Counted from the stretch's first letter, positions 14,341 through 42,173 are shown. The stretch is DNA of 64,000 bases from Candidatus Colwellbacteria bacterium CG10_big_fil_rev_8_21_14_0_10_42_22 (GCA_002773725.1 PFAH01000005.1:17456-81455); one strand, 5' to 3'. The notes: a model not told the origin generated them from the letters alone. Numbers and translations are program-made.

Positions 14341-14350
14341 AATTAGGGTA

Positions 14351-15379
14351 ATGGCCCAACCAAACAGTATTGAAATTTCTTGGATAAGTCTTTGGCGGGT
14401 TTTGTTCATGTTGGGGCTCGGTATCGCTCTATATATGATGCGCGAAACAGTCGCCATTCTTCTTTTAGCATTAATCGTGTCCACGGTTCTCGATAGGCCG
14501 GTAGATTCTCTTGAGCGTCATAAGGTGCCGAGAATTCTAGGAACTATCTTGGTGTATCTAGCGTCCTTTGTATTACTAGCTTTTCTTTTCTATACAGTTA
14601 TTCCGATAGCCATCATAGAACTCGGCCACCTTTTCAATAACTTGGGAGGTTTTGTCAACGATTCTTTGGGAGTCGAGCTTTCAAATGGGTCAGCCATTTT
14701 TACCAATCCAGATATTCAAAGATTCACCGGATCTCTCTTATCAGGAGAGATATCCTTCATTGAAGTTTTGGGCAGATTAGTGGGCGGAGTGACTTTTGTG
14801 ATTGCTACCCTGGTTCTTTCTTTTTACCTCACCGTTAGTCGAGACGGGGTGAAAAAGTTCTTAGTAGCTATCTTTCCTGATTCTACGGAGGAAAAGGTGG
14901 TTACTTTGTATGAGCGCACGAAGAAAAGAATAGGCAAGTGGTTCCAGGCACAATTATTCTTAAGTTTGATAATAGGTCTTTTGGCGTTCACTGGGTTGTC
15001 TTTATTGGGCGTCAAATATGCTCTAGTTTTAGCGGTTATAGCAAGTGCTTTAGAACTTATTCCAATAGTGGGTCCTATATTCGCTGGCGCCCTAGCTGTT
15101 AGTATCGCCTTGTCCAGCTCTTTAACGCTTGGCTTTTATACACTTCTTTTGTTTTTAGGCATTCAACAACTTGAGAATAACGTTTTCGTGCCTTTAGTCA
15201 TGAGAAAAAGAATTGGTGTTCACCCAGTAATGATTTTAGTAGCTATCTTGGGTGGCGCTCAGATTGCGGGCATGGTGGGGGTGCTCTTGGCAGTACCCAC
15301 AGCTGTCTTTATTCAGGAGATGGCAGAGGAGTGGATGAGTGTTAAAACTAGCAAGCGAAAGGGGCGACTTGCGGTATAG
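14351..15379 (+). CDS. AI-2E family transporter (PerM/YhhT-like, UPF0118)
   Basis: 8 TM helices with the AI-2E-typical hydrophobic pattern and C-terminal region. Confidence 0.65.
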   Translation: MAQPNSIEISWISLWRVLFMLGLGIALYMMRETVAILLLALIVSTVLDRPVDSLERHKVPRILGTILVYLASFVLLAFLFYTVIPIAIIELGHLFNNLGGFVNDSLGVELSNGSAIFTNPDIQRFTGSLLSGEISFIEVLGRLVGGVTFVIATLVLSFYLTVSRDGVKKFLVAIFPDSTEEKVVTLYERTKKRIGKWFQAQLFLSLIIGLLAFTGLSLLGVKYALVLAVIASALELIPIVGPIFAGALAVSIALSSSLTLGFYTLLLFLGIQQLENNVFVPLVMRKRIGVHPVMILVAILGGAQIAGMVGVLLAVPTAVFIQEMAEEWMSVKTSKRKGRLAV

Positions 15380-17750: not shown

Positions 17751-20252
17751 ATGTATCCTTTCTCCAATATAGAGAAAAAGTGGAAAGAGAAGTGGCTTAA
17801 AACAAGGATTTACGAGCCCGATTTAGATAAAGCTAAAAAGCCGTTCTATAACCTCATGATGTTCCCATATCCTTCGGCCGAAGGATTACATGTAGGAAAC
17901 GCCTATGCGTTCATTGGGAGCGACATTTACGGACGTTATAAGAGAATGCGGGGCTACGACGTCTTTGAACCAATTGGTCTAGACGGCTTTGGTATCCACA
18001 GCGAGAATTATGCCCTTAAAGTCAAAAAACATCCCGCAGATCAAGCAGAGAGTTCTAAGGAGAGATTTTATAAGCAACTTCAGGAAATAGGCAATGGATT
18101 TGCTTGGGAAGAGCGTCTTGAGACATACACTCCAGAGTATTATAAGTGGACGCAGTGGATCTTTATCCAAATGTGGAAGGCCGGTTTGGTTGAAAGAAGG
18201 AAGGCGAGCGTTAATTGGTGCCCGTCGTGCAAGACAGTTTTGGCGGACGAGCAGGTAGTTGGCGGGAGGTGCGAGAGGTGCGACAGCGAAGTGATTAAGA
18301 AAGATTTGGAGCAGTGGTTTTTTAAGATAACCAATTATGCAGAGAAACTACTTTCAAATCTTGAGAAGATTGACTGGTCAGACAACATCAAGATTGCTCA
18401 AAAAAATTGGATAGGCAAAAGCGAAGGAGCTAGGATTAATTTTCCAATCGTTGATTCGAAAGAGAATATAGAGGTTTTTACTACTCGCCCCGACACAATT
18501 TTTGGAGCCACCTATATGGTTTTGGCGCCAGAGCATCCACTTATAAGAAAACTGGAAGAAAAAATATCTAACAAGAAAGCTGTCCAGGATTATGTCTTAA
18601 AGACACAGAGTAAGACAGAAAATGAAAGAATAGCTGACACTAAATCTAAGACAGGCGTAGAGCTAGAGGGCGTAAAGGCAATTAATCCAGCTAACAAAAA
18701 AGAAATTCCAATTTGGATAGCCGACTATGTTTTGTCTTCATATGGAACGGGAGCAATTATGGCTGTTCCCGGACAGGACGAGAGAGATTGGGAGTTCGCT
18801 GAAAAATTTAAATTACCTATTGTTCGCACGGTCAAACCACCCAAAGATTTTAAGGGTGACGCCTATCTTGGGGACGGACCTGCCATTAATAGCGACTTTT
18901 TAGATGGACTCGAAATAGAAGAAGCTAAAAAGAAAACAATTCAATGGCTTTCAAAAAATGGTTTTGGCAGAACAGAGACCAACTATCACCTTCGTGATTG
19001 GCTAATCTCGCGTCAAAGATATTGGGGTCCACCGATACCTATGATTTATTGTCCCGCCTGCGCCAAGGCTTCGGCGGACAAGAACAACGCTGGATGGCAA
19101 CCAGCACCACTTAAAGATCTCCCCATTCTTTTGCCTAAATTAAAGGATTTTCGTCCCAAAGGTACGGGTGAAGCACCATTGGCCTCATCTCCTGCTTTCT
19201 ATAAAGTAAAATGCCCGAAATGTAAGGGTCCAGCTCGTCGCGAGACGGATGTTTCAGATACATTCCTTGATTCAGCGTGGTATTTCTACCGCTACATCAA
19301 TATGGATAAGAAGAAAGAGGCCTTTAACGAGCTTAGGGTTAAAAAGTGGCTTCCCGTTGATATGTATATTGGCGGAGCAGAGCACGCAGTTCTTCATCTT
19401 CTTTATTCCAGATTTTTAGCCATGGCATTTAAAGATATGGGCCTAATAGATTTTGAAGAGCCATTTACTGCTCTTCGTAGCCACGGCTTGATTATTAAAG
19501 AAGGTGCCAAGATGTCTAAGTCAAAAGGCAACGTAGTGATACCCGATAAATATATCAAGAGATTTGGATCAGACGTTTTGAGAATGTATCTGATGTTCAT
19601 TGGACCATTTCAGGATGGTGGTGATTGGCGGGATGGGGGTATCGCAGGTATAGAAAGATTTTTAACTCGCGTTTGGAATTACTTTGAAGCACGTGCAAAA
19701 TTTATTAAAAAATATCCATCCGCCACCAACGTCAGTGTAATAAAAGAAGTAGCTCCACTTTTCCACCAGACAATCAAAAAAGTGGGGGATGACATAGAAG
19801 ATCTCAAGTACAATACTGCCATTAGCCAGCTCATGATTTTGTTTAATGCTCTTGAAGAACCGGTCAGTGGCAAAAACAATGCTCGAGGAACATTGATTAA
19901 GGGATTCGTTGGTTTAAACAAAAATCAGCACGGAGAATTCCTTAAGCTTTTGACGCCCTTCGCCCCTTTTATCACGGAAGAACTTTGGGAGAAGCTTGGC
20001 AATCCATACTCAATCCATCAACAAAAATGGCCGGAATACATAGAGAAATATCTCACCGGAGATGAGATTAGCTTAATAATTCAAGTTAACGGAAAGTTAA
20101 GAGGAACCATTCAGGCGACTCGCGGAATTAGCGAAAAAGAAGCTATCGAAATTGCTAAGGGTGTAGATAGCGTGAAGGTTGTTTTAGGTAAGAAGAAAAT
20201 CAAAAAGACCGTCTTTGTTCCAGATAAACTTATTAATTTTGTCATAAATTAA
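17751..20252 (+). CDS. leuS: leucyl-tRNA synthetase
   Basis: HVGNAY (HIGH), CP1 editing insertion, LeuS zinc motif and KMSKSKGN. Confidence 0.95.
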   Translation: MYPFSNIEKKWKEKWLKTRIYEPDLDKAKKPFYNLMMFPYPSAEGLHVGNAYAFIGSDIYGRYKRMRGYDVFEPIGLDGFGIHSENYALKVKKHPADQAESSKERFYKQLQEIGNGFAWEERLETYTPEYYKWTQWIFIQMWKAGLVERRKASVNWCPSCKTVLADEQVVGGRCERCDSEVIKKDLEQWFFKITNYAEKLLSNLEKIDWSDNIKIAQKNWIGKSEGARINFPIVDSKENIEVFTTRPDTIFGATYMVLAPEHPLIRKLEEKISNKKAVQDYVLKTQSKTENERIADTKSKTGVELEGVKAINPANKKEIPIWIADYVLSSYGTGAIMAVPGQDERDWEFAEKFKLPIVRTVKPPKDFKGDAYLGDGPAINSDFLDGLEIEEAKKKTIQWLSKNGFGRTETNYHLRDWLISRQRYWGPPIPMIYCPACAKASADKNNAGWQPAPLKDLPILLPKLKDFRPKGTGEAPLASSPAFYKVKCPKCKGPARRETDVSDTFLDSAWYFYRYINMDKKKEAFNELRVKKWLPVDMYIGGAEHAVLHLLYSRFLAMAFKDMGLIDFEEPFTALRSHGLIIKEGAKMSKSKGNVVIPDKYIKRFGSDVLRMYLMFIGPFQDGGDWRDGGIAGIERFLTRVWNYFEARAKFIKKYPSATNVSVIKEVAPLFHQTIKKVGDDIEDLKYNTAISQLMILFNALEEPVSGKNNARGTLIKGFVGLNKNQHGEFLKLLTPFAPFITEELWEKLGNPYSIHQQKWPEYIEKYLTGDEISLIIQVNGKLRGTIQATRGISEKEAIEIAKGVDSVKVVLGKKKIKKTVFVPDKLINFVIN

Positions 20253-22303: not shown

Positions 22304-22325
22304 GTAAAAGATATTTTAACACAAC

Positions 22326-22354
22326 TGGCGGAGGGGGAGGGATTCTTCCCTCTC
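22326..22354 (-). pseudogene. tRNA-Ser 3'-end fragment (T-arm remnant + CCCCTCC acceptor strand + G + CCA); inverted copy of the 3' end of tRNA-Ser(UGA) at 24057..24074
   Basis: Minus-strand reads GAGAGGGAAGAATCCCTCCCCCTCCGCCA; 18 nt (GAATCCCTCCCCCTCCGC) are identical to the tRNA-Ser(UGA) 3' end, but no 5' half is present. Confidence 0.45.
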
Positions 22355-22430
22355 GGCCCAACTCTCCGGATTGGTTGCCGGGAGCAATCCGCCGAAACTT
22401 TAGTGTAGGCGGAGAACCCTCGAGGCAGAG

Positions 22431-22636
22431 CGGAGGGGGCGGGACTCGAACCCACAAGTCCTTTACAGGACTACTTGTTTTCGAAACAAGCTCCTCATCC
22501 AGCCGGATCCCCTCCGCTCTGCTCCTAGGTTTTCCCGCCGCCGCTTCGCTGTGGCGGACTGCGATTTGTAGTTGAACCTACTGTTCAAACAAATCGGGAG
22601 CAAAACCAGCGCGTTCAACCGCTCTGCCACCCCTCC
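22431..22636 (-). tRNA. interrupted tRNA-Ser(CGA)-like gene: a Ser-type 5' half and a complete anticodon/variable/T/acceptor 3' half separated by ~125 nt
   Basis: 5' part GGAGGGG-TG-GCA-GAGCGGTTGAA-CGC-G-CTGGT; 3' part CTTGT-TTCGAAA-ACAAG + long variable arm + GTGGG-TTCGAGT-CCCGC + CCCCTCC + G73. The two acceptor strands pair perfectly; the intervening segment contains a partial duplicate GCAGAGCGGAGGGG that can pair with the 3' end. It is not a canonical contiguous tRNA. Confidence 0.45.
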
Positions 22637-23187: not shown

Positions 23188-23862
23188 TTATTCTAAAGAC
23201 ATTCTAGCTATAATGTCTAGTTCTAATTGTATTTCTGTCCCACCCCCAATAATCACACATACTCCTTTATAGCCACCTTTATTTGTTTTCTTTCCTTTTG
23301 TTCTGGGGTCGGGCTTGGTCTTATAAAAATTCTTTTTAGGAATATTTATTATTTTAGACCAATATGCTATTAACTCTTCGAGGTCTTGATCGACCCTGTA
23401 GTTAATTCTCGCACGGAGGAGCGTATTATCAATGTTATAGCATCGATTTAATAATCTAAGATAAATTTTTACGATATCTGGGTCAGCGCTTCCTAAGGAC
23501 AGGCCACGATAAGAACTCCATTTAGATCCTTCTCCTAAATACAACATTGCGAGTGCGATCTTTGCGGTGTCTTCGTCTTTGATAAAGTTGGTAAAAGGCT
23601 TGTTCTTATTCTTTAGTGAATTTAAATACTCCTTTCGTTTATTTTTGTTTGAGGTGATCGCAGATTCGCGAGCCTTCAAAAGATTTTTAGATGATAGTTT
23701 TGCGATTCTTTCTTGCTGTTGAGGAGATAGGCTAATGTTCTTACACCAATAGGCAAGAGTACTTTTAGGAACTTGTGTTTTTAACATTTGTTGAATCTCA
23801 GAATAAGTTTTTCCTTGTCGTCTCAGCCTAGACGCTTCTTTTCTCAGGATTTCATATTGCAT
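23188..23862 (-). CDS. free-standing LAGLIDADG-family homing endonuclease with N-terminal resolvase-type HTH
   Basis: Single LAGLIDADG-like motif IALAMLYLGEGSKWS and N-terminal HTH (RQGKTYSEIQQML); 224 aa. Confidence 0.6.
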   Translation of the reverse strand: MQYEILRKEASRLRRQGKTYSEIQQMLKTQVPKSTLAYWCKNISLSPQQQERIAKLSSKNLLKARESAITSNKNKRKEYLNSLKNKNKPFTNFIKDEDTAKIALAMLYLGEGSKWSSYRGLSLGSADPDIVKIYLRLLNRCYNIDNTLLRARINYRVDQDLEELIAYWSKIINIPKKNFYKTKPDPRTKGKKTNKGGYKGVCVIIGGGTEIQLELDIIARMSLE

Positions 23863-23984: not shown

Positions 23985-24073
23985 GGAGGGGTGGCTGAGT
24001 GGATGAAGGCACCAGTCTTGAAAACTGGCATGGGGTTTACGCTCCATCGAGGGTTCGAATCCCTCCCCCTCCG
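23985..24073 (+). tRNA. tRNA-Ser (anticodon UGA), type II
   Basis: GGAGGGG acceptor, GCT-GAGTGGATGAA-GGC D-arm, anticodon stem CCAGT/ACTGG with loop CTTGAAA, long variable arm, T-arm GAGGG TTCGAAT CCCTC, then CCCCTCC-G. Confidence 0.8.
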
Positions 24074-24164
24074 CAGTGACAACCTAGTATCGGAGCTGAC
24101 CCGAGAGTCCTGATGAATTGAAGGTTTTGCGTTATCCTTCTATTAGTAAAAGTTTATATCCCAT

Positions 24165-25799
24165 ATGCCAGATTTATCCAACAAAGAACATATGGATCGG
24201 CTCAAGAAGTTCTCGCAGAAGATTAGTCGAGAGTCTTCTATACCCAAGAAATTAGTTGTTGCTGGGCCTGGTGCCGGTAAGACAAAATCTTTTAAAGCAT
24301 TATTGGATGCGCAACCTGCGGATAGTGGGGTGTTGGTATTAACTTTTCTGGGGAATTTAAAGAGGGAGTTGGAGAGGGATCTTGGGCATGCATCGTCAGT
24401 GTTCACGTTCCACGGGTACTGCCATCACTTACTCAGGAAATATGCCGTACTTCGGAGAGGATTAAGTAATGACTTTTTCTACTGTCCAGATTCCCTAGAA
24501 ATAATTAGAGAGGACTGGAAAGTCTTGAATAATGGTGAACCCCCGGACTTTATTTCTCCTCTCCGTTCAAATTTGAAGAACGAACTAACAGAGTTCTACT
24601 TAGACCGTAGTGATTACTACGATGCAATTGGTTTCGACGACTCTATCTTCAGGATTTATCACTCCCTTGCAAGCGAGCCGGAGATTGACTTGTCATACGA
24701 CCTGATACTCATCGATGAATTCCAGGATTTCAATAAACTTGAATCTGATTTTGTCGAGCTGATAAGTAGCCTTGGCCCAATAGTAATTGCGGGGGATGAC
24801 GACCAAGGTTTATACGAAGATAGGTTAGCAAGCCCAAAACATATAAGTGATCTGTATTTGGCGGCAGAATACAAGAACTATGAACTCCCGTACTGCACAC
24901 GGTGTACAAAAGTTATTGTTGATAGTGCAAATAAATTTATGCAAGAGTGCGAAGCCAGAAATATTATTAAGAATAGGATTCCGAAAAAGTTTGAATACTG
25001 CCCCCCGATCAAAGAGATTGATAGCAAACAATATACCTTCATCGAGGTTGTAGAAACATCAGTACAAAGTGGGTCAGTGAATTACTTTGGTCGTTACATT
25101 GAAAGAGAGATCAGAAGTATTCTGCCGGACGATATTGCCAAGTCTCGTAGCGAGGGATTTCTGACTGCATTAATTATCGCCTCTAATCCGTTCCGGCGAG
25201 CTATTGAGGACCACTTTCGGAGTAACCCCGACATTGAGTTGCAAAGCTCCAAGAATGATTTTGAGCCAGTAGATAGAGATACCGCTATAAGGAAGCTCGC
25301 TGACTATCCGAAATCAAATCTATGGTGGCGATTCATTCTCTCGTACGATAAACCTGAGGGCTGGCAGGAGATAGTGAAAGGCAGTACCTCAAAAGATGCG
25401 CTTATTGGACTCGTTCCCGATGAATTCAGAAATTCTGTTTTAGAAGAAGTAAGGGGTCTACGATCACGAGATAGAGCAGATAAAACACCCCAGCCAATAG
25501 ATGAGACAAAGCCCTTAGTAAAAATAGTGACCTTTGAAGGATCAAAGGGGCTTTCTGCTTCGCATGTTTTCATAGCTGGAATGCAAGACGGTACGCTCCC
25601 CAGGAATCCTAAAGAGCCGAGTCATATTGACGCAAAGAAGTTCTACGTTGCACTTACGCGCACTAGGAAGCATTGCCATATTCTTTTCTCAAGAAACTTA
25701 GGAGGTTACAATAATGGCAAACCATCAATCTTTCTCGACTGGATAGATGACGGTAATAAACGAAGTTTGTACGCAGACAAAACATACTTTAATAATTAG
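24165..25799 (+). CDS. UvrD/Rep-like superfamily 1 DNA helicase (compact, 544 aa)
   Basis: Walker A VVAGPGAGKTKSF, motif II LILIDEFQDFN, C-terminal motif VI YVALTRTRKHCHIL; it is the first gene after tRNA-Ser(UGA). Confidence 0.7.
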   Translation: MPDLSNKEHMDRLKKFSQKISRESSIPKKLVVAGPGAGKTKSFKALLDAQPADSGVLVLTFLGNLKRELERDLGHASSVFTFHGYCHHLLRKYAVLRRGLSNDFFYCPDSLEIIREDWKVLNNGEPPDFISPLRSNLKNELTEFYLDRSDYYDAIGFDDSIFRIYHSLASEPEIDLSYDLILIDEFQDFNKLESDFVELISSLGPIVIAGDDDQGLYEDRLASPKHISDLYLAAEYKNYELPYCTRCTKVIVDSANKFMQECEARNIIKNRIPKKFEYCPPIKEIDSKQYTFIEVVETSVQSGSVNYFGRYIEREIRSILPDDIAKSRSEGFLTALIIASNPFRRAIEDHFRSNPDIELQSSKNDFEPVDRDTAIRKLADYPKSNLWWRFILSYDKPEGWQEIVKGSTSKDALIGLVPDEFRNSVLEEVRGLRSRDRADKTPQPIDETKPLVKIVTFEGSKGLSASHVFIAGMQDGTLPRNPKEPSHIDAKKFYVALTRTRKHCHILFSRNLGGYNNGKPSIFLDWIDDGNKRSLYADKTYFNN

Positions 25800-27124
25800 C
25801 TCATGTCTCCTAAAGAAATCTGCATGTTCTGGTAAACAAGCCTACTCCTCAAATTTGCCAGTAAATCTCGCTTCTCACTAACACTCCCTTCTCTGAGCAA
25901 ATACTTCGCATAGGTCTTGAGGTCTATGTCATCTGTGTTTGCTTCCTGCTCGCCATTACCCAAGACAGCGTTTTGGAATTTGTTGAATCTCTTTACCTCC
26001 TCCTGCAACTTCATCTTCATTCCTAACTCATTGATATTTAGTTCATCAACAATCTTTAGTAATTCTTTAATTAGCTCCCCCTCACGAATGTATTTGTTCT
26101 TGCAGTACCTGTCTCTCCCTCGCGTACACCCATAGTAGACATACTTAGCAGTAGTTCCATCTCGCAATTTCTTATATTTCTCTTCGGCCGTTATACCAGA
26201 ACCACATAATCCACAAACCATAAGCTTCGTGAAGGCAAACTCTTTGTTTTCTCGCGTAATCTGGTCGCGTTTCAGATGTGCCTGCACTTTCTCAAATAAT
26301 TCCTGGTTGATAAGGGGCTTGTGTTTCCCTTGATACCAGTTGCCACTCTCTCGCGGATACTCAAAGGTCCCATAGTAGAAAGAATTCTGAAGTGTTCTAT
26401 AGATGCCACTTAATGTGAGCGGCTTGTTTCCTCTCGTCTTAAAGTTCATCTCAAATCGGAGCCAGTGATCCACTTTCCTCCCACTCCACATCTCATACGC
26501 TACTTTCTCGAACATCTGCTTCACGATTGGTGAACGTACAGGATCAATGACTACGTGGCCCTTCTTATCCATGCGATTTTGATTGAGATATCCCAATGGA
26601 GCCACTGTCGGCCAGAGACCCATCTCGCATCGTGTTCGCAATCCTCGTTTAACGTTAATGCCTCTATGGTCATTCTCTAGCTTAGCTTGCGAGCCGAGAA
26701 TCATAAGAAGAAACTTCTCATTTGGGTTGTCTGTAAATCTTTGTCCGTACGTCCGTATTTCGAGAAGCAGCTTCTGGTCCATCAAATCCACAATCGCTCC
26801 AAGGTCCCCAGCGTTCCTGCTCAACCTATCTGGTGCCCACGTTAAAATACCGTTGAATTTCTCCTGGCGAATATCTTCAAGTAGCTCATTAAAGATGATG
26901 CGTTGCCCAGTCTCCTTTGCAGAATGGCTCTCACGCTTCATTTCTACTATCTCTAAGCCCTCTTTCTCTGCGAGTTGGAGCATCTCCTTAACCTGTGATT
27001 CTATCGACAAAGCCTGTCTTTCTTCAGACTCAGATGACTTGCGAGCATATAGGCAGTATTTAACTTTCTCTCGAATCTCTGTGGGGGTAGTCCCCGGACG
27101 TTCTGTTACGGCTGTGTCATCCAT
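25796..27124 (-). CDS. large serine recombinase (resolvase/invertase-type catalytic domain, recombinase domain, zinc ribbon, coiled coil)
   Basis: N-terminal YARKSSESEERQALSIESQ with the catalytic Ser, C-terminal CGLCGS...YYGCTRGRDRYC zinc ribbon, 442 aa. Confidence 0.85.
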   Translation of the reverse strand: MDDTAVTERPGTTPTEIREKVKYCLYARKSSESEERQALSIESQVKEMLQLAEKEGLEIVEMKRESHSAKETGQRIIFNELLEDIRQEKFNGILTWAPDRLSRNAGDLGAIVDLMDQKLLLEIRTYGQRFTDNPNEKFLLMILGSQAKLENDHRGINVKRGLRTRCEMGLWPTVAPLGYLNQNRMDKKGHVVIDPVRSPIVKQMFEKVAYEMWSGRKVDHWLRFEMNFKTRGNKPLTLSGIYRTLQNSFYYGTFEYPRESGNWYQGKHKPLINQELFEKVQAHLKRDQITRENKEFAFTKLMVCGLCGSGITAEEKYKKLRDGTTAKYVYYGCTRGRDRYCKNKYIREGELIKELLKIVDELNINELGMKMKLQEEVKRFNKFQNAVLGNGEQEANTDDIDLKTYAKYLLREGSVSEKRDLLANLRSRLVYQNMQISLGDMS

Positions 27125-27187
27125 ATATACATGAATGACACACCTTCACGGGGCGTCCAGAGAGCCTAGTTGGTAACTTGTAGGTAA

Positions 27188-28663
27188 TTAGATCTTGTCC
27201 ATTTTACCAACTGCCCACGCACTCGTTCTTGCTTCGATTGCCGCGGTGACTGCTATCACAAGCGCATCCACTAAATCATCGTGCCTTTCTGTTCCGAAGC
27301 CGATTAATTGTTCGATGAGTTTTTCGCACCCTTCCATAGGGAATAGAACACGTCCTGATTTAATCCACGCAGAAATCCCTATAAGCCGGGTGCGTTTGTC
27401 CTGTGTTCCTATTTTCACCCCTTTAGCTGGGAAACCGTCCTGTGCAAGTTGCTGTGGGAGGGAGCGTTGATATGCCACATCCTCTACAAGAGCTTCAACT
27501 GGTTTTCCGTCACCGAGCATCGTTGCGTAGTACTTCTCCTCATCGAGAGTTGTTGGAAAATCTATTCTCTTATTGATTGGGTGAGGATGAACATACACCA
27601 CTCGTTGTTTGTCGTGACCGAAGAGAGATACGCCAACTATAGCAGTATAGTCGGCTGTTTCGCGTTCGGAGATAGCAAGATCTATTCCCATCTTTGTCCA
27701 GCGGTATTGGTATCCCTCACGAGGGGGCATCGCATCGTAGTGTTGAATCCATTCCCGCTTAATGACTTGATCTCCAGGAGGGACGATCACCAAAAGAAAT
27801 TCTCTCTTCCAAGCCTCCATACTCCCAATTTTCTTGCGTTCAATCTCAAGCGATTCCTTGTCAGGATATTTGCCAAGCCAGAGGGACTTGCCGTTATCAT
27901 CAACTACTGGATGTGTTCTGAAGATTCCAGTGAGCCGACCATCTTGGATTTCTCTCTCTAGGCGTTTTAGAAGTGAATCTTCGTGGAGGAGGTTGCCAAT
28001 GACTATCATCTTTGTGTTTTGGTCTCCAGCGGGAAGAATATCGCCCTTAAACTTCTGGTATGTCTTATCACGCCCTTCCTGGGTGCGTGTCGACTCTAAA
28101 TCTTCTACATCATCAACAACGATGAGGTCAGGACGATACTGCTTATGTTTCACGCCACGAATACGCTGATCAATTGAAAGAAAGACTATCTTCGCGTCAT
28201 ACCAAGGGAGGTAGAGGGTGTAGTTACCCCATTCATCGCTTTCTTCTTTGAATGGTCCCATATCTCGCCTCAAGAGACTGTTATCTTCTAGCTCTCGTTT
28301 AAGGTTCATGAAGCTGTACTTTGACTGGTGCTGAGTGTCATTGATGACGACCACAAACTTCTTTTTTAGTCTTCCAATAATTGCCCATATAGGGAGAGAG
28401 AGTGAGCAGATGGTGGTCTTCCCGGATCCACGAAATGCTACTGTAACCAGAAAGGAAACCTTCTCATCTCCCGTTAGAGACAAGAGTTCTTTCTGGAAGT
28501 TCGCTGTGGAGTGAGTTACGTGATCTCGCAGATAGATGTGAAAGAACCAAAAGTGACTCTCTCTACCAAGAATTCTGCGGAACGCAGGCTTCTTTATGGC
28601 TCTATCAATTATTGCTTTGAGAACTCCTTCTTTATTCATCTTCTTCATCGTCTTTCGGCTCAT
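27188..28663 (-). CDS. phage terminase large subunit (ATPase + RNaseH-like nuclease)
   Basis: Walker A FRGSGKTT, Walker B LIVVDDVED, C-terminal nuclease acidic residues (GIDLAISE...DDLVDAL). Confidence 0.7.
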   Translation of the reverse strand: MSRKTMKKMNKEGVLKAIIDRAIKKPAFRRILGRESHFWFFHIYLRDHVTHSTANFQKELLSLTGDEKVSFLVTVAFRGSGKTTICSLSLPIWAIIGRLKKKFVVVINDTQHQSKYSFMNLKRELEDNSLLRRDMGPFKEESDEWGNYTLYLPWYDAKIVFLSIDQRIRGVKHKQYRPDLIVVDDVEDLESTRTQEGRDKTYQKFKGDILPAGDQNTKMIVIGNLLHEDSLLKRLEREIQDGRLTGIFRTHPVVDDNGKSLWLGKYPDKESLEIERKKIGSMEAWKREFLLVIVPPGDQVIKREWIQHYDAMPPREGYQYRWTKMGIDLAISERETADYTAIVGVSLFGHDKQRVVYVHPHPINKRIDFPTTLDEEKYYATMLGDGKPVEALVEDVAYQRSLPQQLAQDGFPAKGVKIGTQDKRTRLIGISAWIKSGRVLFPMEGCEKLIEQLIGFGTERHDDLVDALVIAVTAAIEARTSAWAVGKMDKI

Positions 28664-29057
28664 CCGGAACAGCTAAAAGAAGCGCCTGTTTTAAGAGTTT
28701 CGCATCCTCTTCGGATAGCTCAATTTCCTGCCCGACCTTGCCTGTGATGTGCAGTTTCGGTGAGTACGCAGGATGTCTATTCTGCAACCACAATCGGATG
28801 GCTGAAACGTTCTCGTTTTGGATTGCTGAAATGAGCTTGCTCTCAGCCAGATCGTTTAGCCGTTCGAGACCCTCTACTATCGCCCTATCTGTCGCCTGTG
28901 CAAACTTTGGGTCATCTTTCCTCCAACGATAAAAGGATGTCCTCCCAATACCACATTTAGAACACGCAACTTGGATAATTGGTGTTATCTTCAGCTGTTC
29001 GATCATTTTCTCCTTCTGTCGTTCCTGCTTCCTCTCTATTGTCTTATCTTTAGTCAT
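28632..29057 (-). CDS. HTH DNA-binding protein, terminase small-subunit-like
   Basis: 141 aa, HTH (CSKCGIGRTSFYRWRKDD), immediately upstream of and overlapping the terminase large subunit, acidic C-terminal tail. Confidence 0.4.
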   Translation of the reverse strand: MTKDKTIERKQERQKEKMIEQLKITPIIQVACSKCGIGRTSFYRWRKDDPKFAQATDRAIVEGLERLNDLAESKLISAIQNENVSAIRLWLQNRHPAYSPKLHITGKVGQEIELSEEDAKLLKQALLLAVPDEPKDDEEDE

Positions 29058-30393
29058 GATTAATTTTCTTAGCTTTTTTACCGGTAAGTCGCTCCCACCG
29101 GTTCTTTATTACCTCCGCATACGTTGGGACTAACTCCATCATGTTGCATCGGCGATTTAGTTTCTCGGCAACTATAATTGTTGAACCGCTACCTCCGAAT
29201 AAATCGATTACAAGGTCTCCACGCTTTGTTAGAACCTTCATGTATGGGAGAAGAACCTCCACCGGTTTGGTCCCAAAAATTATCGACTGTTGTGAACTTT
29301 TCTCGTCAGCTGCATTGAAGGATATGAAGTCTGTGGGTTGGACTTTCTTGCCCTTCCGATAGCTTTCCCAGGTGGGTTTACCAGATGTAGCAAACAATGC
29401 ATTCTCGTACTCGCTTTGCAAAAATTCATCTGATTCAGGCTCAATATTTAGTTCAACATTTCCTTTAGTCCCGACCAAAGCAATATCAGTTTTATTGAAG
29501 AACTTATATTTAGCTGCGAAGCCCTGTACACGATTCGGGAGGTGCCACGTTATCGTGTTTCTGTATCGCCAGTGTTTTTCGAGCTCTGTCCAAATGACTT
29601 TCAGGTTCTTAGGGTTCTCGAAGACCATTATTGAGAAGTCTTCTTTTTGAATCTGCGCTACATTAGCCATCCACTTTTCCGTGAAATCTGGCGGAAGAAC
29701 GTCTGTCTCAAGGTATTTACGGTCTCTCCTGAGACCGAATCCTTCTGTTGCCTTGCCATGCTTCTTCTTGCCTGTCAGATATGAAAGCAGGTACGGCGGG
29801 TCCACCATACATAAATCCGCTTTCTCTCCATTCATTAGCCTCAGGACATCTTTCTCTAGAGTGCTGTCTCCGCACATTAGGCGATGTTTGCCAAGCTGCC
29901 AGACATCACCCTTTTTCACTTCAATCTTTGTGATGTTCAACTTCTCCAATTCTTTCTGGATGTCGAATTCTTCTGGGCTGTCTTCAATACCGAAGACATC
30001 ATCTAACTCCTCACTTGTGAATCCAATCTCCGAGAGCACATCTTCGTCGAACTCTGCAAGGAGTTGGAAGTCCCACTCTCCTTGGTTGCGGTTAAGCCTC
30101 AGGTTTAGCTCGCGCTCCTTCTCAAGATCCTCTATGTGGAGATAGATGACGGGCACATTTTTTACCCCCATTTCCTCTAGGGCCTTCACTCTCATGTGTC
30201 CGCCGATTATCACTTGCTCCCTTCCCGGTGCGTTATTTACCAAGATCGGATCTACGACTCCGTATCTCTTTAGCGATGTTTTAAGTTGCTCCATATCCTC
30301 TTTTTTGTGTTTACGAGGATTGTATGGTGCTGGTTTAAGTTCCTTTATAGGAACTTGTACGATCTTAAGATCGTCTGGGTTTATTTTGCTCAT
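29050..30393 (-). CDS. ParB-like nuclease domain fused to N6-adenine/N4-cytosine DNA methyltransferase (phage-type orphan MTase)
   Basis: N-terminal ParB motif VIIGGHMRVKAL; MTase motif IV MVDPPYL and motif I DLFGGSGSTIIVAEKL (beta-class order). Confidence 0.8.
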   Translation of the reverse strand: MSKINPDDLKIVQVPIKELKPAPYNPRKHKKEDMEQLKTSLKRYGVVDPILVNNAPGREQVIIGGHMRVKALEEMGVKNVPVIYLHIEDLEKERELNLRLNRNQGEWDFQLLAEFDEDVLSEIGFTSEELDDVFGIEDSPEEFDIQKELEKLNITKIEVKKGDVWQLGKHRLMCGDSTLEKDVLRLMNGEKADLCMVDPPYLLSYLTGKKKHGKATEGFGLRRDRKYLETDVLPPDFTEKWMANVAQIQKEDFSIMVFENPKNLKVIWTELEKHWRYRNTITWHLPNRVQGFAAKYKFFNKTDIALVGTKGNVELNIEPESDEFLQSEYENALFATSGKPTWESYRKGKKVQPTDFISFNAADEKSSQQSIIFGTKPVEVLLPYMKVLTKRGDLVIDLFGGSGSTIIVAEKLNRRCNMMELVPTYAEVIKNRWERLTGKKAKKINHD

Positions 30394-30395
30394 GA

Positions 30396-30794
30396 TTATT
30401 TATTCTTTTGTTTTTTACTTTTTGATTTTTCCGGTTGGTGCCCGGCAAGACTGAGAAATAGTCGGACATCGCTGGCGTTTCCTTTACCGGAGGCAACTTT
30501 CTCGTACAAACCGCCCATAATGTCTGGCGTATGCTCTCGCATCCACTCCTGCAAGAATTGCCATACCAGTGGCCAGAATTCTTCGTGTTTCTTCCAGTCC
30601 GTTAGGGTGTCTTGGTTTACTTTTACTCCGATCTGATCAGCGAATTCCTTCTGCGTTTTTGGCTCGCGGAGCCATTGAGGGAGCGCACACCACCTAGCAA
30701 ATTCGACGAATTCTTGGACTCGTTTAACACCTGGGATAGCAGGAAAAGAATCGGAGTGAATCCGAGTTAGCTGTACGTTTTTGTTTTTACCCAT
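30396..30794 (-). CDS. phage-associated hypothetical protein (first gene of the minus-strand packaging operon)
   Basis: 132 aa, basic C-terminus, 3-nt gap to the ParB-MTase gene; no recognisable motif. Confidence 0.35.
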   Translation of the reverse strand: MGKNKNVQLTRIHSDSFPAIPGVKRVQEFVEFARWCALPQWLREPKTQKEFADQIGVKVNQDTLTDWKKHEEFWPLVWQFLQEWMREHTPDIMGGLYEKVASGKGNASDVRLFLSLAGHQPEKSKSKKQKNK

Positions 30795-30841
30795 CTTTTT
30801 TAAGTAATTGGTTTATTTCGACTTCAGTTCAAACAAAAACA

Positions 30842-30932
30842 CCGACTCTATATAGAGTCGGCATCTGGAAAAGAAAAAAGCTTCGAATCCAGACAATAAT
30901 CTATATAGATTTATATTGTCTTGATTCGAAGC
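30842..30932. promoter_or_regulatory. two palindromic elements in a divergent intergenic region: a 20-bp perfect palindrome (30842..30861) and a ~53-bp near-perfect palindrome (30880..30932)
   Basis: CCGACTCTAT|ATAGAGTCGG is perfect. GCTTCGAATCCAGACAATA...TATTGTCTTGATTCGAAGC has 19-bp arms with one mismatch around an AT-rich core. Both lie upstream of the minus-strand operon start (30794) and before the plus-strand defence operon. Confidence 0.4.
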
Positions 30933-31378
30933 CCTTCCTCACGTTTCCTTTGTGCACGATGGCTCGGAAGCGATTGCAGTCTTTCTTCGGATCTACTGAA
31001 CCTCACTTTTCTCTCTTCTGAATGGCTATGATAGGCCAGGGAGACGAGTGTGTTCTGCCTCAACGGTGTATTTGTAGAACTATCCATAATATACGCCTTA
31101 GTTAGACTATGTGTCAAATGTTGATAACCCGCTTCGCAGAACCCAACGATTAAGCTAGGGTGCCATAGACCAGGAGAAGACTCTTCTGGTAATATGAGTT
31201 TAACAACTGAATAGCCTAACCCTTCCGATTTGGTAGGTATGGCACTAAAGCCGTTGCAGGCATCAAGCTCCTCGTCGGGAGCACCTGCAACGGTCATACG
31301 GGGAAACTCGTGTGGGTGGCTTCGGCCATCGCCTGGCGGGGAGCTTTATGTTCCAGGCCAGGAGAAACCGTTGCAGGT

Positions 31379-32434
31379 ATGGCCATAATTATTTCTAAAA
31401 ACGGCAAGGATGCCAAAAGGGTAGATAAATCTTCTTTTGAGAAAGAGGACAATTTACAAGAGTACATCTACGATAATCCGGAGAGTATTCCGCTATATGA
31501 CATTAAGGAAGATATTCATCTTTTAATCCTCGCTCGCGAGTTTCCTACAAACAGTGGTCCTATTGATGCAATCGGAATAGATAAGGACGGCGATATTTAT
31601 ATTGTAGAAACAAAACTCTATAAGAATTCAGATAAACGTACAGTTGTAGCCCAAGCTCTCGATTATGGAGCAGCTCTTTGGAAGCATTCCAATGACTTCA
31701 ATGAATTCACGGCACGTTTAGATACGGAGGTACAGAGAACTTTTAAAGTCTCGCTGAATGAAAAACTCAGAGACTTCTTCGAGCTCTCAGATGATGAGCT
31801 GACCGAACTCTTAGATCGTGTAAAAGGGAACCTTGATGATGGTATATTACGATTCGTTATATTGATGGATAGCTTAGATGCACGTCTTAAAGACCTCATA
31901 GTTTATGTAAACCAGAATAGCCAATTTGATATCTATGCCGTGGAACTCGAGTATTACAAACACGAGGAGTACGAAATAATTATCCCTAGAATCTACGGAG
32001 CAGAAGTGAAGAAAGACATTAACGTTTTGTCTGGTAAACGTCACAGATGGGATGAGGGGTCATTGTTAGAGGATGCGAAGCAGAAGCTAACCAGCGAAGA
32101 ATTGAGAGCATTTGAGAAGATTTATCAATTTTCAAAAAACAATGCTGACAAGATAAACTTTGGCACTGGTGCATATGCTGCTTTCAGTCCTATATTTTCA
32201 AAATTTAGTAGGATGTCTCTTTTTACTCTTACCACAGACAAACGTTTAGCTTTTAACTTCGAATGGACAGCGAAGATAGATGAAAAAGTAGCAGAACTTT
32301 ACAAAGACAAACTGGAGTCTATTGGGTTCTCGTTTCCAGAAAACTTCAAAGAGATACGCCCAAGTGTACTGCCAGACGAGTGGTTATCCAAAACCGATGG
32401 GTTTCTGAAGATCTTATCGGAGATAATTAAATAG
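31379..32434 (+). CDS. PD-(D/E)XK nuclease-like protein (N-terminal restriction-endonuclease-like core plus helical C-terminal region)
   Basis: IDAIGIDKDGDIYIVETKLY (D...D...E-x-K) nuclease motif; start set at MAIIISK, preceded by an AGGAG-like Shine-Dalgarno; first gene of the operon containing type III mod/res. Confidence 0.4.
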   Translation: MAIIISKNGKDAKRVDKSSFEKEDNLQEYIYDNPESIPLYDIKEDIHLLILAREFPTNSGPIDAIGIDKDGDIYIVETKLYKNSDKRTVVAQALDYGAALWKHSNDFNEFTARLDTEVQRTFKVSLNEKLRDFFELSDDELTELLDRVKGNLDDGILRFVILMDSLDARLKDLIVYVNQNSQFDIYAVELEYYKHEEYEIIIPRIYGAEVKKDINVLSGKRHRWDEGSLLEDAKQKLTSEELRAFEKIYQFSKNNADKINFGTGAYAAFSPIFSKFSRMSLFTLTTDKRLAFNFEWTAKIDEKVAELYKDKLESIGFSFPENFKEIRPSVLPDEWLSKTDGFLKILSEIIK

Positions 32435-32488
32435 AATGACTCTAAAAAATTCCTTGCTTCAACCCCGCCAAGTGGGCATAATCTTGAT

Positions 32489-34711
32489 ATGAGTAGTAAT
32501 CTTTCAGATAACGAAAAAAGAAACATTCTCAAATACATTGAGGCTGGAAAACCACTTCCAGATAAATATAGATTCCTTCTTTTTGAAGATAAGAAAGAAG
32601 TCGAATTGGTGTGGAATGGTAAAACGTCTGAAGTTTCTAATATAGTACTGCCCTTTCAAACAATCGAGGTCGTAGATGAACCACGGGCAGAAGATGCGTC
32701 TGATACGAAAAAGCAAGTACAACCAACTCTTAGAGTAGAACAGGAGTCTCCATTTGATTTTGACGAGCGAGGTAGGCAAATTGCTGGCTGGACGAATAAG
32801 CTTATCTGGGGAGATAACAAGCTGATTCTTTCTAGCCTGAAAAACGGAGTTTTGCGAGAAGAGATTGAGAGAGAAGGCGGACTAAAACTTATTTATATCG
32901 ACCCTCCATTTGATGTCGGTGCAGATTTTTCAATGAAAGTGGAAATTGGCGATGAGGAGCTTACAAAAAAACCAAATGTTCTGGAAGAATTAGCGTATAG
33001 GGATACTTGGGGGAAGGGCGCAGATAGTTTTATCGCCATGATTTATGAACGACTAAGCTTGATGAAAGATTTACTTGCTGATGATGGGAGTATTTATGTG
33101 CACCTTGGAATACAGGTTAACCATTATGTAAGATTGATACTTGAAGAAATATTTGGCAAAGAGAACTTAGTTTCAGAAATTATTTGGGCATATGGTTCGC
33201 CATCTGGTGGAAGAGCTGCAGGAACAAAGTTAGTAAAGATACATGAGTACATACTTCATTTCGCAAAAAATTATAATAATAGAATCGAAAATAAAACCTA
33301 TCTTCCATATAAAGAAGAATATATTAAAGATTGGTTTAAATGGACAGATGCTGACGGAAGGGTGTACCGTAAGCGAATTCGTGGAAAGGACGCTGATGGA
33401 AAACCTGTCTATGAAAAACAATATTTAGACGAAAGTGCTGGAGAGCCAGCTTCAACAGTCTGGAGAGATATAAAACAAATTTACGCCGATCCTAGAGCCT
33501 ATAAATCAAATCAGGGCGATTATAGCGAGATATTAGGATATCCAACACAAAAACCAGAAAAACTTATTGAACGTATTATTAATGCTTCTTCCAATGAAGG
33601 CGATCTTGTCGCCGATTTTTTCTGCGGTTCGGGAACGACACTTGCTGTAGCGGAAAAACTTGGCAGAAAATGGATTGGTTCTGACCTCGGAAAATTCTCT
33701 ATTCATACAACTAGGAAACGAATGATTAATGTGCAGCGAGAATTAAAGAAATCTGGTACCGACTTTCGTGCTTTTGAAATACTTAATCTCGGGAAATATG
33801 AGCGTCAACATTATGTTGGTGTAAACATGAATTTACGTGAAGAAGAGAAACAAAAACAGCTTGCCAAGAAAGAGGCCGACTTTATAGAACTTATTATTAA
33901 GGCATACAAAGCCGAAGCTATTAATAACTTTAAGACATTTGTTGCTAAGAAATCTGGACGATTAGTAGCAGTTGGACCAGTCAATCTACCTGCATCACGA
34001 TTGTTCGTAGAGGAAGTCATTAAGGAATGTATTGATAAACAAATTACAAAAGTAGATATTCTTTCATTTGAATATGAAATGGGACTTTTCCCTAAGATTC
34101 AGGAGGAAGCGAAAGATAAGGGTATCGATCTGGCTCTTAAACATATCCCACGAGAAGTATTCGATAAACGAGCAATTGAGAAAAACCAAGTTCAATTCCA
34201 CGATGTTTCTTATATAGAAGTAAAACCACACATTAAACCCGCTGGGAAAAAGATGGACGGGAAAGTAGCGATAGAACTCACCGACTTCTCCGTTTATTAC
34301 AATCAGGACATCGTTGATAATGTGATTGCTAGCCTTAAGAAGGGATCAGATAAGGTTTTAGTTGAGCAAGGAAATATAATCAAGATAACAAAAGACAAAG
34401 ATGGCATTGTTGAGCAGGAGGTTTTAACGAAGAAATGGACAGATTGGATTGATTACTGGGCAGTGGACTTTGATTTTGAAAGCAAGAAAGAAATTGTTCG
34501 TATAAAAGACGAAAATGGAAAAATTGAAGAAGCTTGGACTGGTAGTTATATATTTGAGAATGAATGGCAGTCTTTCCGAACAAAGAAAGATCGCTCCATT
34601 GAATTAAAAAGTGTTGCGCATGAATGCGAAGCAGGTCGACGTAAAATTGCTATTAAGGTCGTTGATATCTTCGGCAACGATACGATGAAAGTAATTGAAG
34701 TTAATATTTGA
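32489..34711 (+). CDS. mod: type III restriction-modification methyltransferase (Mod), beta-class
   Basis: Motif [11 protein letters not shown] precedes motif [25 protein letters not shown]; 740 aa with a central target-recognition region. Confidence 0.85.
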
Positions 34712-35325
34712 TTTTTATGAAAATTTTGGTCAATTTTTACGCAAACGTAACAGAAGGATCTATTAATGACTTAATCCAGTTCATTACAGTTAAGCTTGCA
34801 CAACAAAACCCAGAAAAACCAATAGATGAGATTATAATTCAGATTTCTAGCTCTGGAGGATCTTCTGACCATGGATTACTTGCGTATAATTTTTTAAAAC
34901 AGATTAGCATTCCAAAGACCACCATAGGTATGGGGAACGTAGATAGCGCAGCCATTATGATCTTCTTAGCAGGAGATAAGCGTTTGGCTATGCCGAGTTG
35001 TAGGTTCGTTCTCCATGAGGCTATTGCAACGATAGGCGGTCAATTCACTGCGACTAAGCTTGGTGAGATGTCGAGGTTGATACAAAGGATTACGGACGAT
35101 TACGTAGAAGTGGTTATAAAAGTAGTTGAAGGCAAAAAAGAATATATCACCAAAGAGGTGAAGAAAGGTTCGGTCCTATCTTCTAACGAAGCTAAAAAAA
35201 TGAAACTTGTCTCCGATATTTTAGAGAAACCATATTTAAGCGAGATGAAAAATTTAGATATTCTATTGATTAATAATCCCAGACAACCGGTTCAACAAAA
35301 GCCAGAGAAAAAGTCAGAAATTTAA
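34708..35325 (+). CDS. ClpP-family (S14-like) serine protease homolog embedded between mod and res
   Basis: Alignable to ClpP: [18 protein letters not shown] ~ NPEKDIYLYINSPGG; [21 protein letters not shown]...RFVLHEA ~ ICMGQAASMGAFLLTAG...RVMIHQP, with Ser and His retained. The ATG overlaps the mod stop (ATGA) and the stop is 2 nt before the res ATG. Confidence 0.6.
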
Positions 35326-35327
35326 TT

Positions 35328-38000: not shown

Positions 38001-38015
38001 AACGATCGTTTAGCC

Positions 38016-40841: not shown

Positions 40842-40844
40842 TGT

Positions 40845-41951: not shown

Positions 41952-42099
41952 AATGGAACATTCTCGAAAACCACGTTTTCATGTTCCGTTTGTTCCATTT
42001 GACCCCCGACCCACGAGCCTAAATTCGCTTCTGGAAACAGCCCCAAGAAACCCTTATACTGCCTCATAAGACTTGGTACCAGACCCGAGTCGCCCGCCA

Positions 42100-42173
42100 G
42101 GGCCCATGGTTCAATGGTAGAACACTGGTTTTGCATACCAGAGATCGGAGTTCGATTCTCCGTGGGTCCACCA
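42100..42173 (+). tRNA. tRNA-Ala (anticodon UGC), CCA encoded, G3:U70
   Basis: GGGCCCA acceptor (G3-U70), GTTC-AATGGTA-GAAC D-arm, anticodon stem CTGGT/ACCAG with loop TTTGCAT, T-arm CGGAG TTCGATT CTCCG, 3' TGGGTCC-A-CCA. Confidence 0.85.

Follow-up and report, generated by a model that had tools for sequence, protein, structure and literature searches.

A Candidatus Colwellbacteria locus with a complete terminase and no capsid genes as a probable member of a family of satellite-like islands in Patescibacteria

A stretch of 64,000 nucleotides from Candidatus Colwellbacteria bacterium CG10_big_fil_rev_8_21_14_0_10_42_22 (GCA_002773725.1, PFAH01000005.1:17456-81455; hereafter the window) encodes, on its minus strand at 30794..25796, two proteins resembling the small subunit of phage terminase (TerS), a DNA methyltransferase (MTase) with a ParB_N domain, the large terminase subunit (TerL) and a large serine recombinase (LSR). 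The odds are about even (probability roughly 0.5) that this locus is one of a large family of capsid-less, terminase-bearing islands of Patescibacteria (the candidate phyla radiation, CPR) that are satellite-like and package themselves into helper capsids. The islands consist of a core, comprising an orphan MTase (with or without ParB_N), TerS, TerL and an LSR with its own promoter, and of adjoining variable cargo, often led by the LOOT RNA, that includes anti-phage and superinfection-exclusion genes. There is a realistic chance that the family is a previously undescribed and distinct class of phage-satellite-type integrative island; no description of it was found in the literature.

The open reading frames (ORFs) of the operon were confirmed in the window, and the gene content given in a preliminary description of this DNA (TerL, TerS, ParB-MTase and LSR) is borne out by profile matches (Table 1) and intact catalytic motifs. 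The terminase call held in a profile search, with Terminase_6C above threshold and phrog_38 at E 2.5e-67, and the TerL family profile also matches the ATPase of T7 TerL in PDB (E 1e-5). The Walker A motif FRGSGKTT (residues 77-84), the Walker B motif with the catalytic glutamate, LIVVDDVED (180-188), and the acidic residues of the nuclease, D328 (GIDLA) and D463/D466 (HDDLVDA), are all invariant across 31 aligned homologues.

Directly upstream of TerL, and overlapping its start, is the gene of a TerS-like protein of the PF13022 family. For this protein and for the product of the operon's first gene, capsid, portal or small-terminase folds had initially been considered. The AF2 model of the former (pLDDT 74.5) consists of a helix-turn-helix (HTH) and a long helix (helices 28-35, 39-48 and 50-80), and its top foldseek match is 2ao9 (phBC6A51; E 0.08, prob 0.98), followed by Sf6 TerS. 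Both matches are weak, and they lend weak support to a small-terminase fold as opposed to a capsid or portal fold. The first gene encodes a second, divergent protein that is weakly TerS-like by profiles; BLASTP found no similarity between it and the other TerS. In phage contigs L085 and L087 (locus numbers are those of this analysis), homologues of this second protein take the place of TerS, immediately upstream of TerL. The MTase contains both DPPY and FGGSG motifs and is an orphan, no partner endonuclease being present within the packaging operon. In the LSR, the catalytic serine motif YARKSSESEERQ is intact; PDB matches include SPbeta YokA and TP901-1 integrase, and the protein resembles CcrB and XisF, although the NCBIfam CcrB match (E 4e-31) is far below the equivalog cutoff. 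It is the only recombinase found on the island, and its gene is internal rather than at an island end.

Nowhere in the 64-kb window does an ORF show similarity to a portal, protease, capsid or tail protein of the related phages, and no structural family is among the best 25 of the 96 PHROG families matched by the 58 window ORFs. The preliminary description, which had reported such genes to be missing from the window, was correct in this respect. A phmmer comparison of every ORF of the 24 phage loci with the window and 66 element loci matched nothing beyond MTases, TerS and a few small proteins. The same PHROG library recovers portal, protease and major capsid protein (MCP) right after TerL in related phages, which demonstrates that the method is able to detect structural genes. 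TerL of the window is followed by the LSR rather than by the portal-capsid module of an intact or cryptic Caudoviricetes prophage, and no head-tail structural cluster like that of a gene transfer agent (GTA) is found within the 64 kb. The only protease of the window is a ClpP-like protein (34708..35325) with weak similarity to head-maturation proteases (phrog_94, E 1.7e-15; NCBIfam Clp_rel_HeadMat, 44 bits where the cutoff is 120), and no capsid gene lies beside it. Because both flanks are housekeeping DNA by synteny with a relative, any structural genes past the window edges would not belong to the element.

Contexts of related genes were fetched by exact protein, from GTDB species representatives (13 loci) and from IMG/VR, where a single-protein scan was empty and an alignment-based scan yielded 74 loci. 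The window TerL has thousands of relatives. The best 120, its own copy aside, are 47-63% identical to it, and their named sources are Patescibacteria (Magasanik-, Moran-, Kuenen- and Colwellbacteria); the closest TerLs of isolated phages are just 25-33% identical. Loci with a TerL at least about 42% identical possess MTase-TerS-TerL and then an LSR, which follows at once or with a few intervening genes, most of them on the opposite strand; they never have a structural module. Loci with a TerL 35-43% identical are genuine phages, in which portal (phrog_2662, E 1e-84 to 1e-117), protease and MCP genes come after TerL; several of them carry a ParB-MTase upstream of TerS and TerL. The module evidently derives, judging by this shared gene order, from phages with the arrangement ParB-MTase-TerS-TerL-portal.

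Among 60 non-redundant element loci, the MTase is present in all 60, a detectable TerS in 46 and an LSR in 44 (27 of the 35 loci that have at least 4 kb downstream of TerL), the LSRs being homologous at E 1e-150 to 1e-200. All element TerLs fall into one clade, apart from the phage TerLs, in a neighbour-joining tree of 87 TerLs, and the dN/dS ratios of moderately diverged element pairs are 0.01-0.06 for TerL, 0.02-0.17 for TerS, 0.02-0.08 for LSR and 0.03-0.14 for MTase. From the single TerL clade and the low dN/dS it is concluded that the capsid-less state arose once and is maintained by selection, and a randomly decayed prophage is ruled out. Two full-length tandem TerL paralogues, from two different sub-clades of element TerLs, are present in L027, L030, L031, L032 and L043. 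Contigs with two MTase-TerS-TerL modules or two LSRs (L040/L046, 55 kb; L045/L050, 39 kb; L083; L012) suggest that islands may occur in tandem or in multiple copies per genome. About 50 of the IMG/VR contigs listed as viral (L019-L054, L058-L065, L068-L072 and L083) are capsid-less islands within CPR chromosomal DNA, and their viral call appears to have been set off by TerL alone.

Near-identity across a species boundary shows that the element has been mobile recently. Loci L004 and L005, which belong to two species, share a 9.8-kb block that is 99.7-99.9% identical, whereas the flanking FtsX/ABC genes are about 78% identical. The block begins at the first codons of the MTase, takes in TerS, TerL, DUF4352, DUF4238, LSR, a pair of small genes and a UvrD-type helicase, and ends inside the same tRNA-Gln gene, where the identity stops; the two tRNAs differ in the anticodon arm only. 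In all GTDB loci with a tRNA gene (Gln, Glu or Ser) downstream of the module, the 3' end of the tRNA faces the element; seven loci besides the window have a downstream tRNA in this orientation. L004 alone (18128..18460, compared with L005 at 16320) has a GIY-YIG endonuclease ORF and a duplicated 5' fragment of tRNA-Gln beside the tRNA-Gln gene; this makes a second, small insertion at the hotspot.

The extent of the island was defined by comparison with the closest available relative, L093 (GCA_043819735.1; MurF 65% identical), in which the order of genes is the same (TatD-LeuRS-MurF-GlmU at one flank; at the other, GT2, a P-type ATPase and a pilin-like gene) and the same four tRNAs lie between the flanks. 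The spacer that separates tRNA-Ser(tga) from tRNA-Ala(tgc) is just 99 nt long in L093 but measures 18.0 kb in the window, and the island is therefore placed at 24075..42099. The unit is thus about 18 kb long and bounded by two tRNA genes, rather than the segment of about 5 kb (25796-30794) that had been delimited at first. The 3' end of tRNA-Ser(tga) is the proximal boundary and the likely attachment region. That the host belongs to the CPR, as supposed from the sequence, is supported by an identical TerS annotated as Candidatus Colwellbacteria in NCBI and by the presence of the LOOT RNA.

Table 1. Features of the island and its boundaries, in window coordinates
Feature	Position	Strand	Evidence or remark
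tRNA-Ser(tga)	23985..24074	+	ARAGORN, Rfam; 3' end abuts island
UvrD-like SF1 helicase	24165..25799	+	Pfam UvrD-helicase/UvrD_C; PADLOC GajB-like, E 4e-25
Large serine recombinase (LSR, integrase)	25796..27124	-	Resolvase, Recombinase and Zn_ribbon_recom, all above Pfam threshold; phrog_95, E 1e-62
LSR promoter-like motif, TGGACG-17 nt-ATTCAT	27131..27159	-	Ends 6 nt before ATG
TerL (ATPase and RNaseH-like nuclease)	27188..28663	-	phrog_38, E 2.5e-67; Terminase_6C (PF17289), 28.6 bits, cutoff 22.6
TerS-like protein, PF13022/phBC6A51 family	28632..29057	-	PF13022, 45.8 bits (cutoff 27.9); TerS PHROGs to E 3e-10
ParB_N-fused beta-class N6A/N4C DNA methyltransferase	29050..30393	-	ParB_N, E 7e-13; N6_N4_Mtase, E 1e-20; phrog_498, E 2e-89
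TerS-like HTH protein, second and divergent, 132 aa, first gene of operon	30396..30794	-	Weak PF13022 (HTH_Tnp_1_2) and TerS PHROG matches, E about 1e-5 to 5e-4
Two tandem hairpin and T-run elements, operon leader	30837..30932 (30932..30878; 30866..30837)	-	Sequence, terminator scan
Near-consensus sigma-70-type promoter, TTGACA-18-TATATT	31088..31117	-	11/12 consensus matches; consensus match only
LOOT RNA (Rfam RF03000)	31213..31330	+	83.2 bits, gathering score 46.4; full-length match (1-121)
PD-(D/E)xK/NucS-like nuclease candidate	31310..32434	+	PADLOC PDC-S11/S18-like, E 3e-17; NucS weak
Type III restriction-modification Mod	32489..34711	+	Pfam
ClpP-like serine protease embedded in type III restriction-modification system	34708..35325	+	Pfam
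Type III restriction-modification Res with C-terminal endonuclease	35328..38000	+	Pfam
KAP-family P-loop NTPase (QatA/PDC-S20/PifA-like) and unannotated 368-aa protein, distal cargo	38016..41951	+	NTPase by PADLOC
tRNA-Ala(tgc), distal boundary of 18-kb insert	42100..42173	+	tRNA scan, Rfam; same downstream GT2, P-type ATPase and pilin-like genes in L093

Several classes of known elements share some of these characteristics. Capsid-forming phage-inducible chromosomal islands (cfPICIs) are likewise integrative and phage-derived, bring their own TerS and TerL, and obtain the other virion parts from a helper, as the island would; however, they possess capsid, portal, protease and head-tail connector genes and a tyrosine integrase, none of which the island has, and homologues of such a capsid module were detected neither in the window nor in any of 66 family loci. 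Phage-inducible chromosomal islands (PICIs), including the Staphylococcus aureus pathogenicity islands (SaPIs), and phage-inducible chromosomal minimalist islands (PICMIs) are small tRNA- or site-specific islands with their own TerS, often with defence cargo, and without structural genes. At the level of gene content the island resembles them in lacking structural and lysis genes and having its own TerS, and redirection of packaging may be predicted on that basis. Whereas these elements use the helper's TerL and tyrosine integrases, and PICIs have a primase-replicase and Stl/AlpA control, the island has its own TerL, an LSR and an orphan ParB-MTase, and no replicase was found. The preliminary description had offered a PICI-like satellite or a heavily reduced prophage; a satellite-type element fits best, but membership of the PICIs is contradicted by the presence of TerL and by the lack of any island ORF matching a tyrosine integrase, a primase or replicase, or a master repressor or regulator of the AlpA or Stl type in Pfam, PHROG or NCBIfam.

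The PLEs of Vibrio (elements resembling phage-inducible chromosomal islands) and the virion-encapsidated integrative mobile elements (VEIMEs) that encode serine recombinases are satellites integrated by an LSR that interfere with the helper phage. VEIMEs show that diverse uncultured satellites exist, and are stated to depend on the large terminase of the helper (PMC9618062). TerL has not been reported for PLEs or VEIMEs, and their hosts, gene content and RNA component differ from those of the island. The tailed phages of IMG/VR (L073-L091 and L055-57), with the order ParB-MTase-(C5-MTase)-TerS-TerL-portal-protease-MCP, share the arrangement of TerS and ParB-MTase and a TerL 35-43% identical, but continue into a portal and capsid module and are without LSR and LOOT; their relationship to the islands makes them evident ancestors and candidate helpers. 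Like the staphylococcal cassette chromosome SCCmec and other LSR islands, the element has a Ccr-like LSR that moves a cargo island into a fixed chromosomal site, but SCC elements have no terminase genes. In phage P1, an MTase is encoded together with packaging functions, and adenine methylation gates the cleavage of pac by terminase. By analogy, regulation of a pac site is a plausible role for the invariant MTase of the islands, which differs from that of P1 by its ParB_N domain.

We infer helper dependence, self-packaging of the island, control by antitermination, and roles for the MTase and LOOT. The LSR would integrate and excise the island beside a tRNA gene. In the resting state, two leader terminators would hold the packaging operon off while the cargo protects the cell. 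Upon infection by a helper tailed phage, which may be a relative of the ParB-MTase-TerS-TerL-portal phages that were the source of the module, read-through would switch the operon on. TerS would then recognize the island's own pac site, the island TerL would cut island DNA and pump it into procapsids made by the helper, and the MTase might mark or protect the packaged DNA, so that the island would spread and the yield of the helper would drop. A broader proposal, made somewhat more tentatively, is that the family is a new satellite class or terminase-driven mobilization platform specific to Patescibacteria, characterized by TerS and TerL (sometimes two TerLs), an orphan methylase, no capsid, LSR integration next to tRNA genes, the ferrying of defence islands between these ultra-small symbionts, and a LOOT RNA dedicated to LSR islands as a leader or regulator of cargo or recombination.

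Several points weigh against a satellite. Terminal direct or inverted repeats, which would suggest circular or packaged forms, are present in none of 43 whole-contig loci. The helper phage is a candidate only, and compatibility of the island TerL with its portal is assumed. To our knowledge, a satellite with TerL alone is without precedent, the known TerL-bearing satellites (cfPICIs) carrying capsid genes as well. Searches of Pfam, PHROG and NCBIfam found no replication initiator or primase in the core, and no direct repeat of the tRNA 3' part was found at the far island end of the window, L004, L005 and L015. Finally, the G+C content is 0.44-0.46 in the core and 0.35-0.38 in the part with the type III restriction-modification (R-M) and KAP genes, and the 18 kb may be a composite of a 7-kb core element and older cargo; against this, at six other loci the core likewise has LOOT and the same nuclease gene with it, arranged in three different ways.

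The terminase module always lies in or beside defence cargo, and the MTase is invariably coupled to a nuclease-bearing TerL with a logic like that of R-M systems. These characteristics would also suit a terminase-derived defence module, in which TerS, TerL and a self-marking MTase act on incoming phages, either by competing for or poisoning their procapsids or by cutting unmodified concatemeric phage DNA, and in which the island moves only by LSR recombination together with transformation or other vehicles. The lack of a replication module in the island and of circular forms or direct terminal repeats among the 43 whole-contig loci is also in its favour. This explanation is nevertheless unlikely, because the same MTase-TerS-TerL order serves packaging in bona fide phages, the full set of TerL ATPase translocase motifs is conserved in addition to the nuclease, and PADLOC has no model that matches TerL, TerS or LSR; furthermore, interference with a helper is also satellite behaviour, so the two explanations overlap. 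The locus would be part of a GTA-like or prophage system in split form if structural genes for it were located elsewhere in the same genome. The window covers just 64 kb of a contig that is at least 435 kb long, and GTAs and some cryptic phages do have dispersed loci, yet such a system is improbable given the several copies per contig (L040/L046, L045/L050, L083 and L012), the recent movement between species of a 9.8-kb unit without structural genes, the variable positions beside different tRNAs, and the genomes of CPR bacteria, which are about 1 Mb in size and in which prophages are rarely reported (PMC12366544).

Resemblance of the LSR to CcrB and XisF, and the existence of LOOT-LSR islands without detectable TerL (LSR in 13 and TerS/TerL in 6 of 20 loci sampled through LOOT), would be expected of an LSR-mobilized integrative or transposon-like island, similar to SCCmec or Tn4451, in which the packaging genes are long-retained passengers with another DNA-processing role. 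A trio of mere passengers would not keep strict synteny in 60 of 60 loci, at dN/dS of 0.01-0.1 across a deep clade, and there is little probability in this alternative. A decaying prophage remnant that retains packaging genes and an integrase would explain the phage ancestry of the module and the split TerL of one locus (L016), but is contradicted by the family-wide comparisons: the same capsid-less gene subset recurs across dozens of lineages, the TerLs are monophyletic, purifying selection is strong, motifs are intact and mobility is recent. The heavily reduced prophage of the preliminary description is therefore given hardly any credence.

A near-consensus promoter at 31117..31088 reads toward the packaging operon, with two hairpins downstream of it and then the ATG at 30794. 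The T-runs of both hairpins are on the sense strand of the operon, and equivalent leader hairpins of L049 and L052 keep their shape with G-T wobble changes. Of 45 family loci, 26 have a strong hairpin with a T-run in the 250 nt that precede the first core gene, often only 7-45 nt before the start codon, compared with 14% of shuffles. The tandem hairpins are likely to be intrinsic leader terminators or attenuators. The palindromes at 30842..30932 had been put forward as candidate att sites, but due to the sense-strand T-runs, the wobble-compatible conservation of shape and the upstream promoter, terminators are preferred to att sites. If the leader does terminate transcription, expression of the packaging operon would depend on read-through or antitermination. 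A conserved regulator was sought in the gene that immediately precedes the MTase, but this gene had no Pfam hits and formed small clusters only.

The recombinase is not simply the last gene of this operon, as had been thought, because it has a promoter-like motif of its own that is conserved in the family directly upstream of its ATG. The family motif is T(A/G)GACT-about 17 nt-(TGCG)TCAT(T/C)AAT, or in short T(A/G)GACT...TGCGTCAT(T/C)AAT, and ends 6-10 nt before the ATG of the LSR; in the window, where the distance is 6 nt, the motif suggests a leaderless transcript. The perfect 14-bp palindrome TGCATAGCTATGCA, located about 60 nt upstream of the LSR start in L006, L018 and L038, with variants in L008, L011, L012 and L029, overlaps the -35-like element of the conserved LSR promoter and is a possible operator.

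The 57 proteins encoded between TerL and LSR in family loci include type I, type IIG and type III R-M systems, reverse transcriptases and ThsB-TIR, as well as the Ltp superinfection-exclusion lipoprotein, DUF4352, DUF4238 and OB-fold membrane proteins; nucleases similar to PDC-S11 are also found among the cargo of the family. Such defence cargo matches what known satellites carry. In the window, the cargo genes are preceded on their 5' side by the LOOT RNA, which is divergent from the packaging operon. LOOT is present in the window, in 10 of the 13 GTDB loci and in 11 of the 74 IMG/VR loci of the family (L006, L008, L009 twice, L011, L012, L014-L016, L018 and the 11 IMG/VR loci; further LOOT loci are L095-L174), always on the 5' side of cargo on the same strand: 13 of the downstream genes belong to the tRNA_anti-like/Zn-ribbon-Ig family and seven encode a PDC-S11-like nuclease. 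Homologues of the window's nuclease are directly 3' of LOOT in L011, L015, L021, L049, L052 and L070. The RNA takes one of three positions: 40-70 nt past the LSR stop codon, 150-166 nt upstream of the LSR start and pointing away from it, or, as in the window, in the same divergent orientation upstream of the MTase operon.

Compensatory changes in 15 of 17 tested pairs across 22 copies, many G-U pairs on the annotated strand, and GNRA and UUCG loops indicate that LOOT is an RNA and not a DNA site. The possibility that it is a DNA att site or a host attB gene was rejected, as it sits between TerL and LSR in many loci and has these loops and strand-specific G-U covariation. In a metagenome sample drawn by the LOOT sequence pattern, with 20 informative loci having at least 2.5 kb on each side, an LSR was found in 13, TerS/TerL in 6 and neither in 5, and the LSRs were of two families, of about 440 aa and about 540 aa. 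LOOT is thus tied to serine-recombinase islands of CPR bacteria in general. No account of an association between LOOT and LSR islands was found in the literature, and the association appears to be new.

According to a recent paper, only one phage of CPR/Patescibacteria has been described, and few defence systems have been identified in them (PMC12366544). If the satellite interpretation is true, a family of hundreds to thousands of members would constitute a major route of gene flow and immunity in much of bacterial diversity, and the satellite concept would extend to elements with a full packaging motor but no shell. The locus is the visible tip of a large conserved family that links an orphan RNA motif to serine-recombinase islands, and LOOT thereby gains a testable genomic context. 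Because IMG/VR lists about 50 capsid-less islands as viral, prophage counts and virus-host links for the CPR may be inflated. The LSRs, which form a conserved family of compact, site-specific integrases, may be of interest for genome engineering.

Several other characteristics of the island and its surroundings were noted. The stop codon of the UvrD-like helicase overlaps that of the LSR by 4 nt. A conserved replication gene in this tRNA-proximal position was considered and rejected, since no homology was detected between this helicase and those that take its place in L004, L015 and L009; by this comparison the helicase, the only one found on the island, is to be regarded as variable cargo and not as core. 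The true start of the nuclease candidate is probably at about 31379. The ClpP-like gene between Mod and Res has start and stop codons that overlap or abut those of its neighbours, and its product apparently has Ser, His and Asp at ClpP-like positions, judged by eye. Generic repeat finding for att sites returned only chance-level pairs. An 8-mer, GACCCGAG, is present near both island ends, and an imperfect direct repeat, GACCCGAGAGTC / GACCCGAGTCGC, at 24095..24107 and 42082..42094, lies just inside the ends of the 18-kb insert; both were judged compatible with chance, and the latter is not in the empty site of L093.

Outside the island, an apparent tRNA-Ser gene at 22325..22636 on the minus strand is interrupted by some 220-250 nt that follow its anticodon stem. 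The 33 nt at its 5' end, and also its 3' end, match tRNA-Ser(cga) of L093, and the insertion holds a complete tRNA-Ser(cga) at 22430..22520 that resembles tRNA-Ser(tga) of L093; by these matches, the tRNA-Ser genes at this hotspot appear to be mosaic. Between tRNA-Ala(ggc) and tRNA-Ser(tga), an unannotated ORF of 224 aa (23188..23862, minus strand) has a homologue in L003, 7 kb from the module (E 1e-16). At the same position L093 has an ORF (14130..14630) that is HNH-like by eye, and this position is another variable slot of the tRNA cluster.

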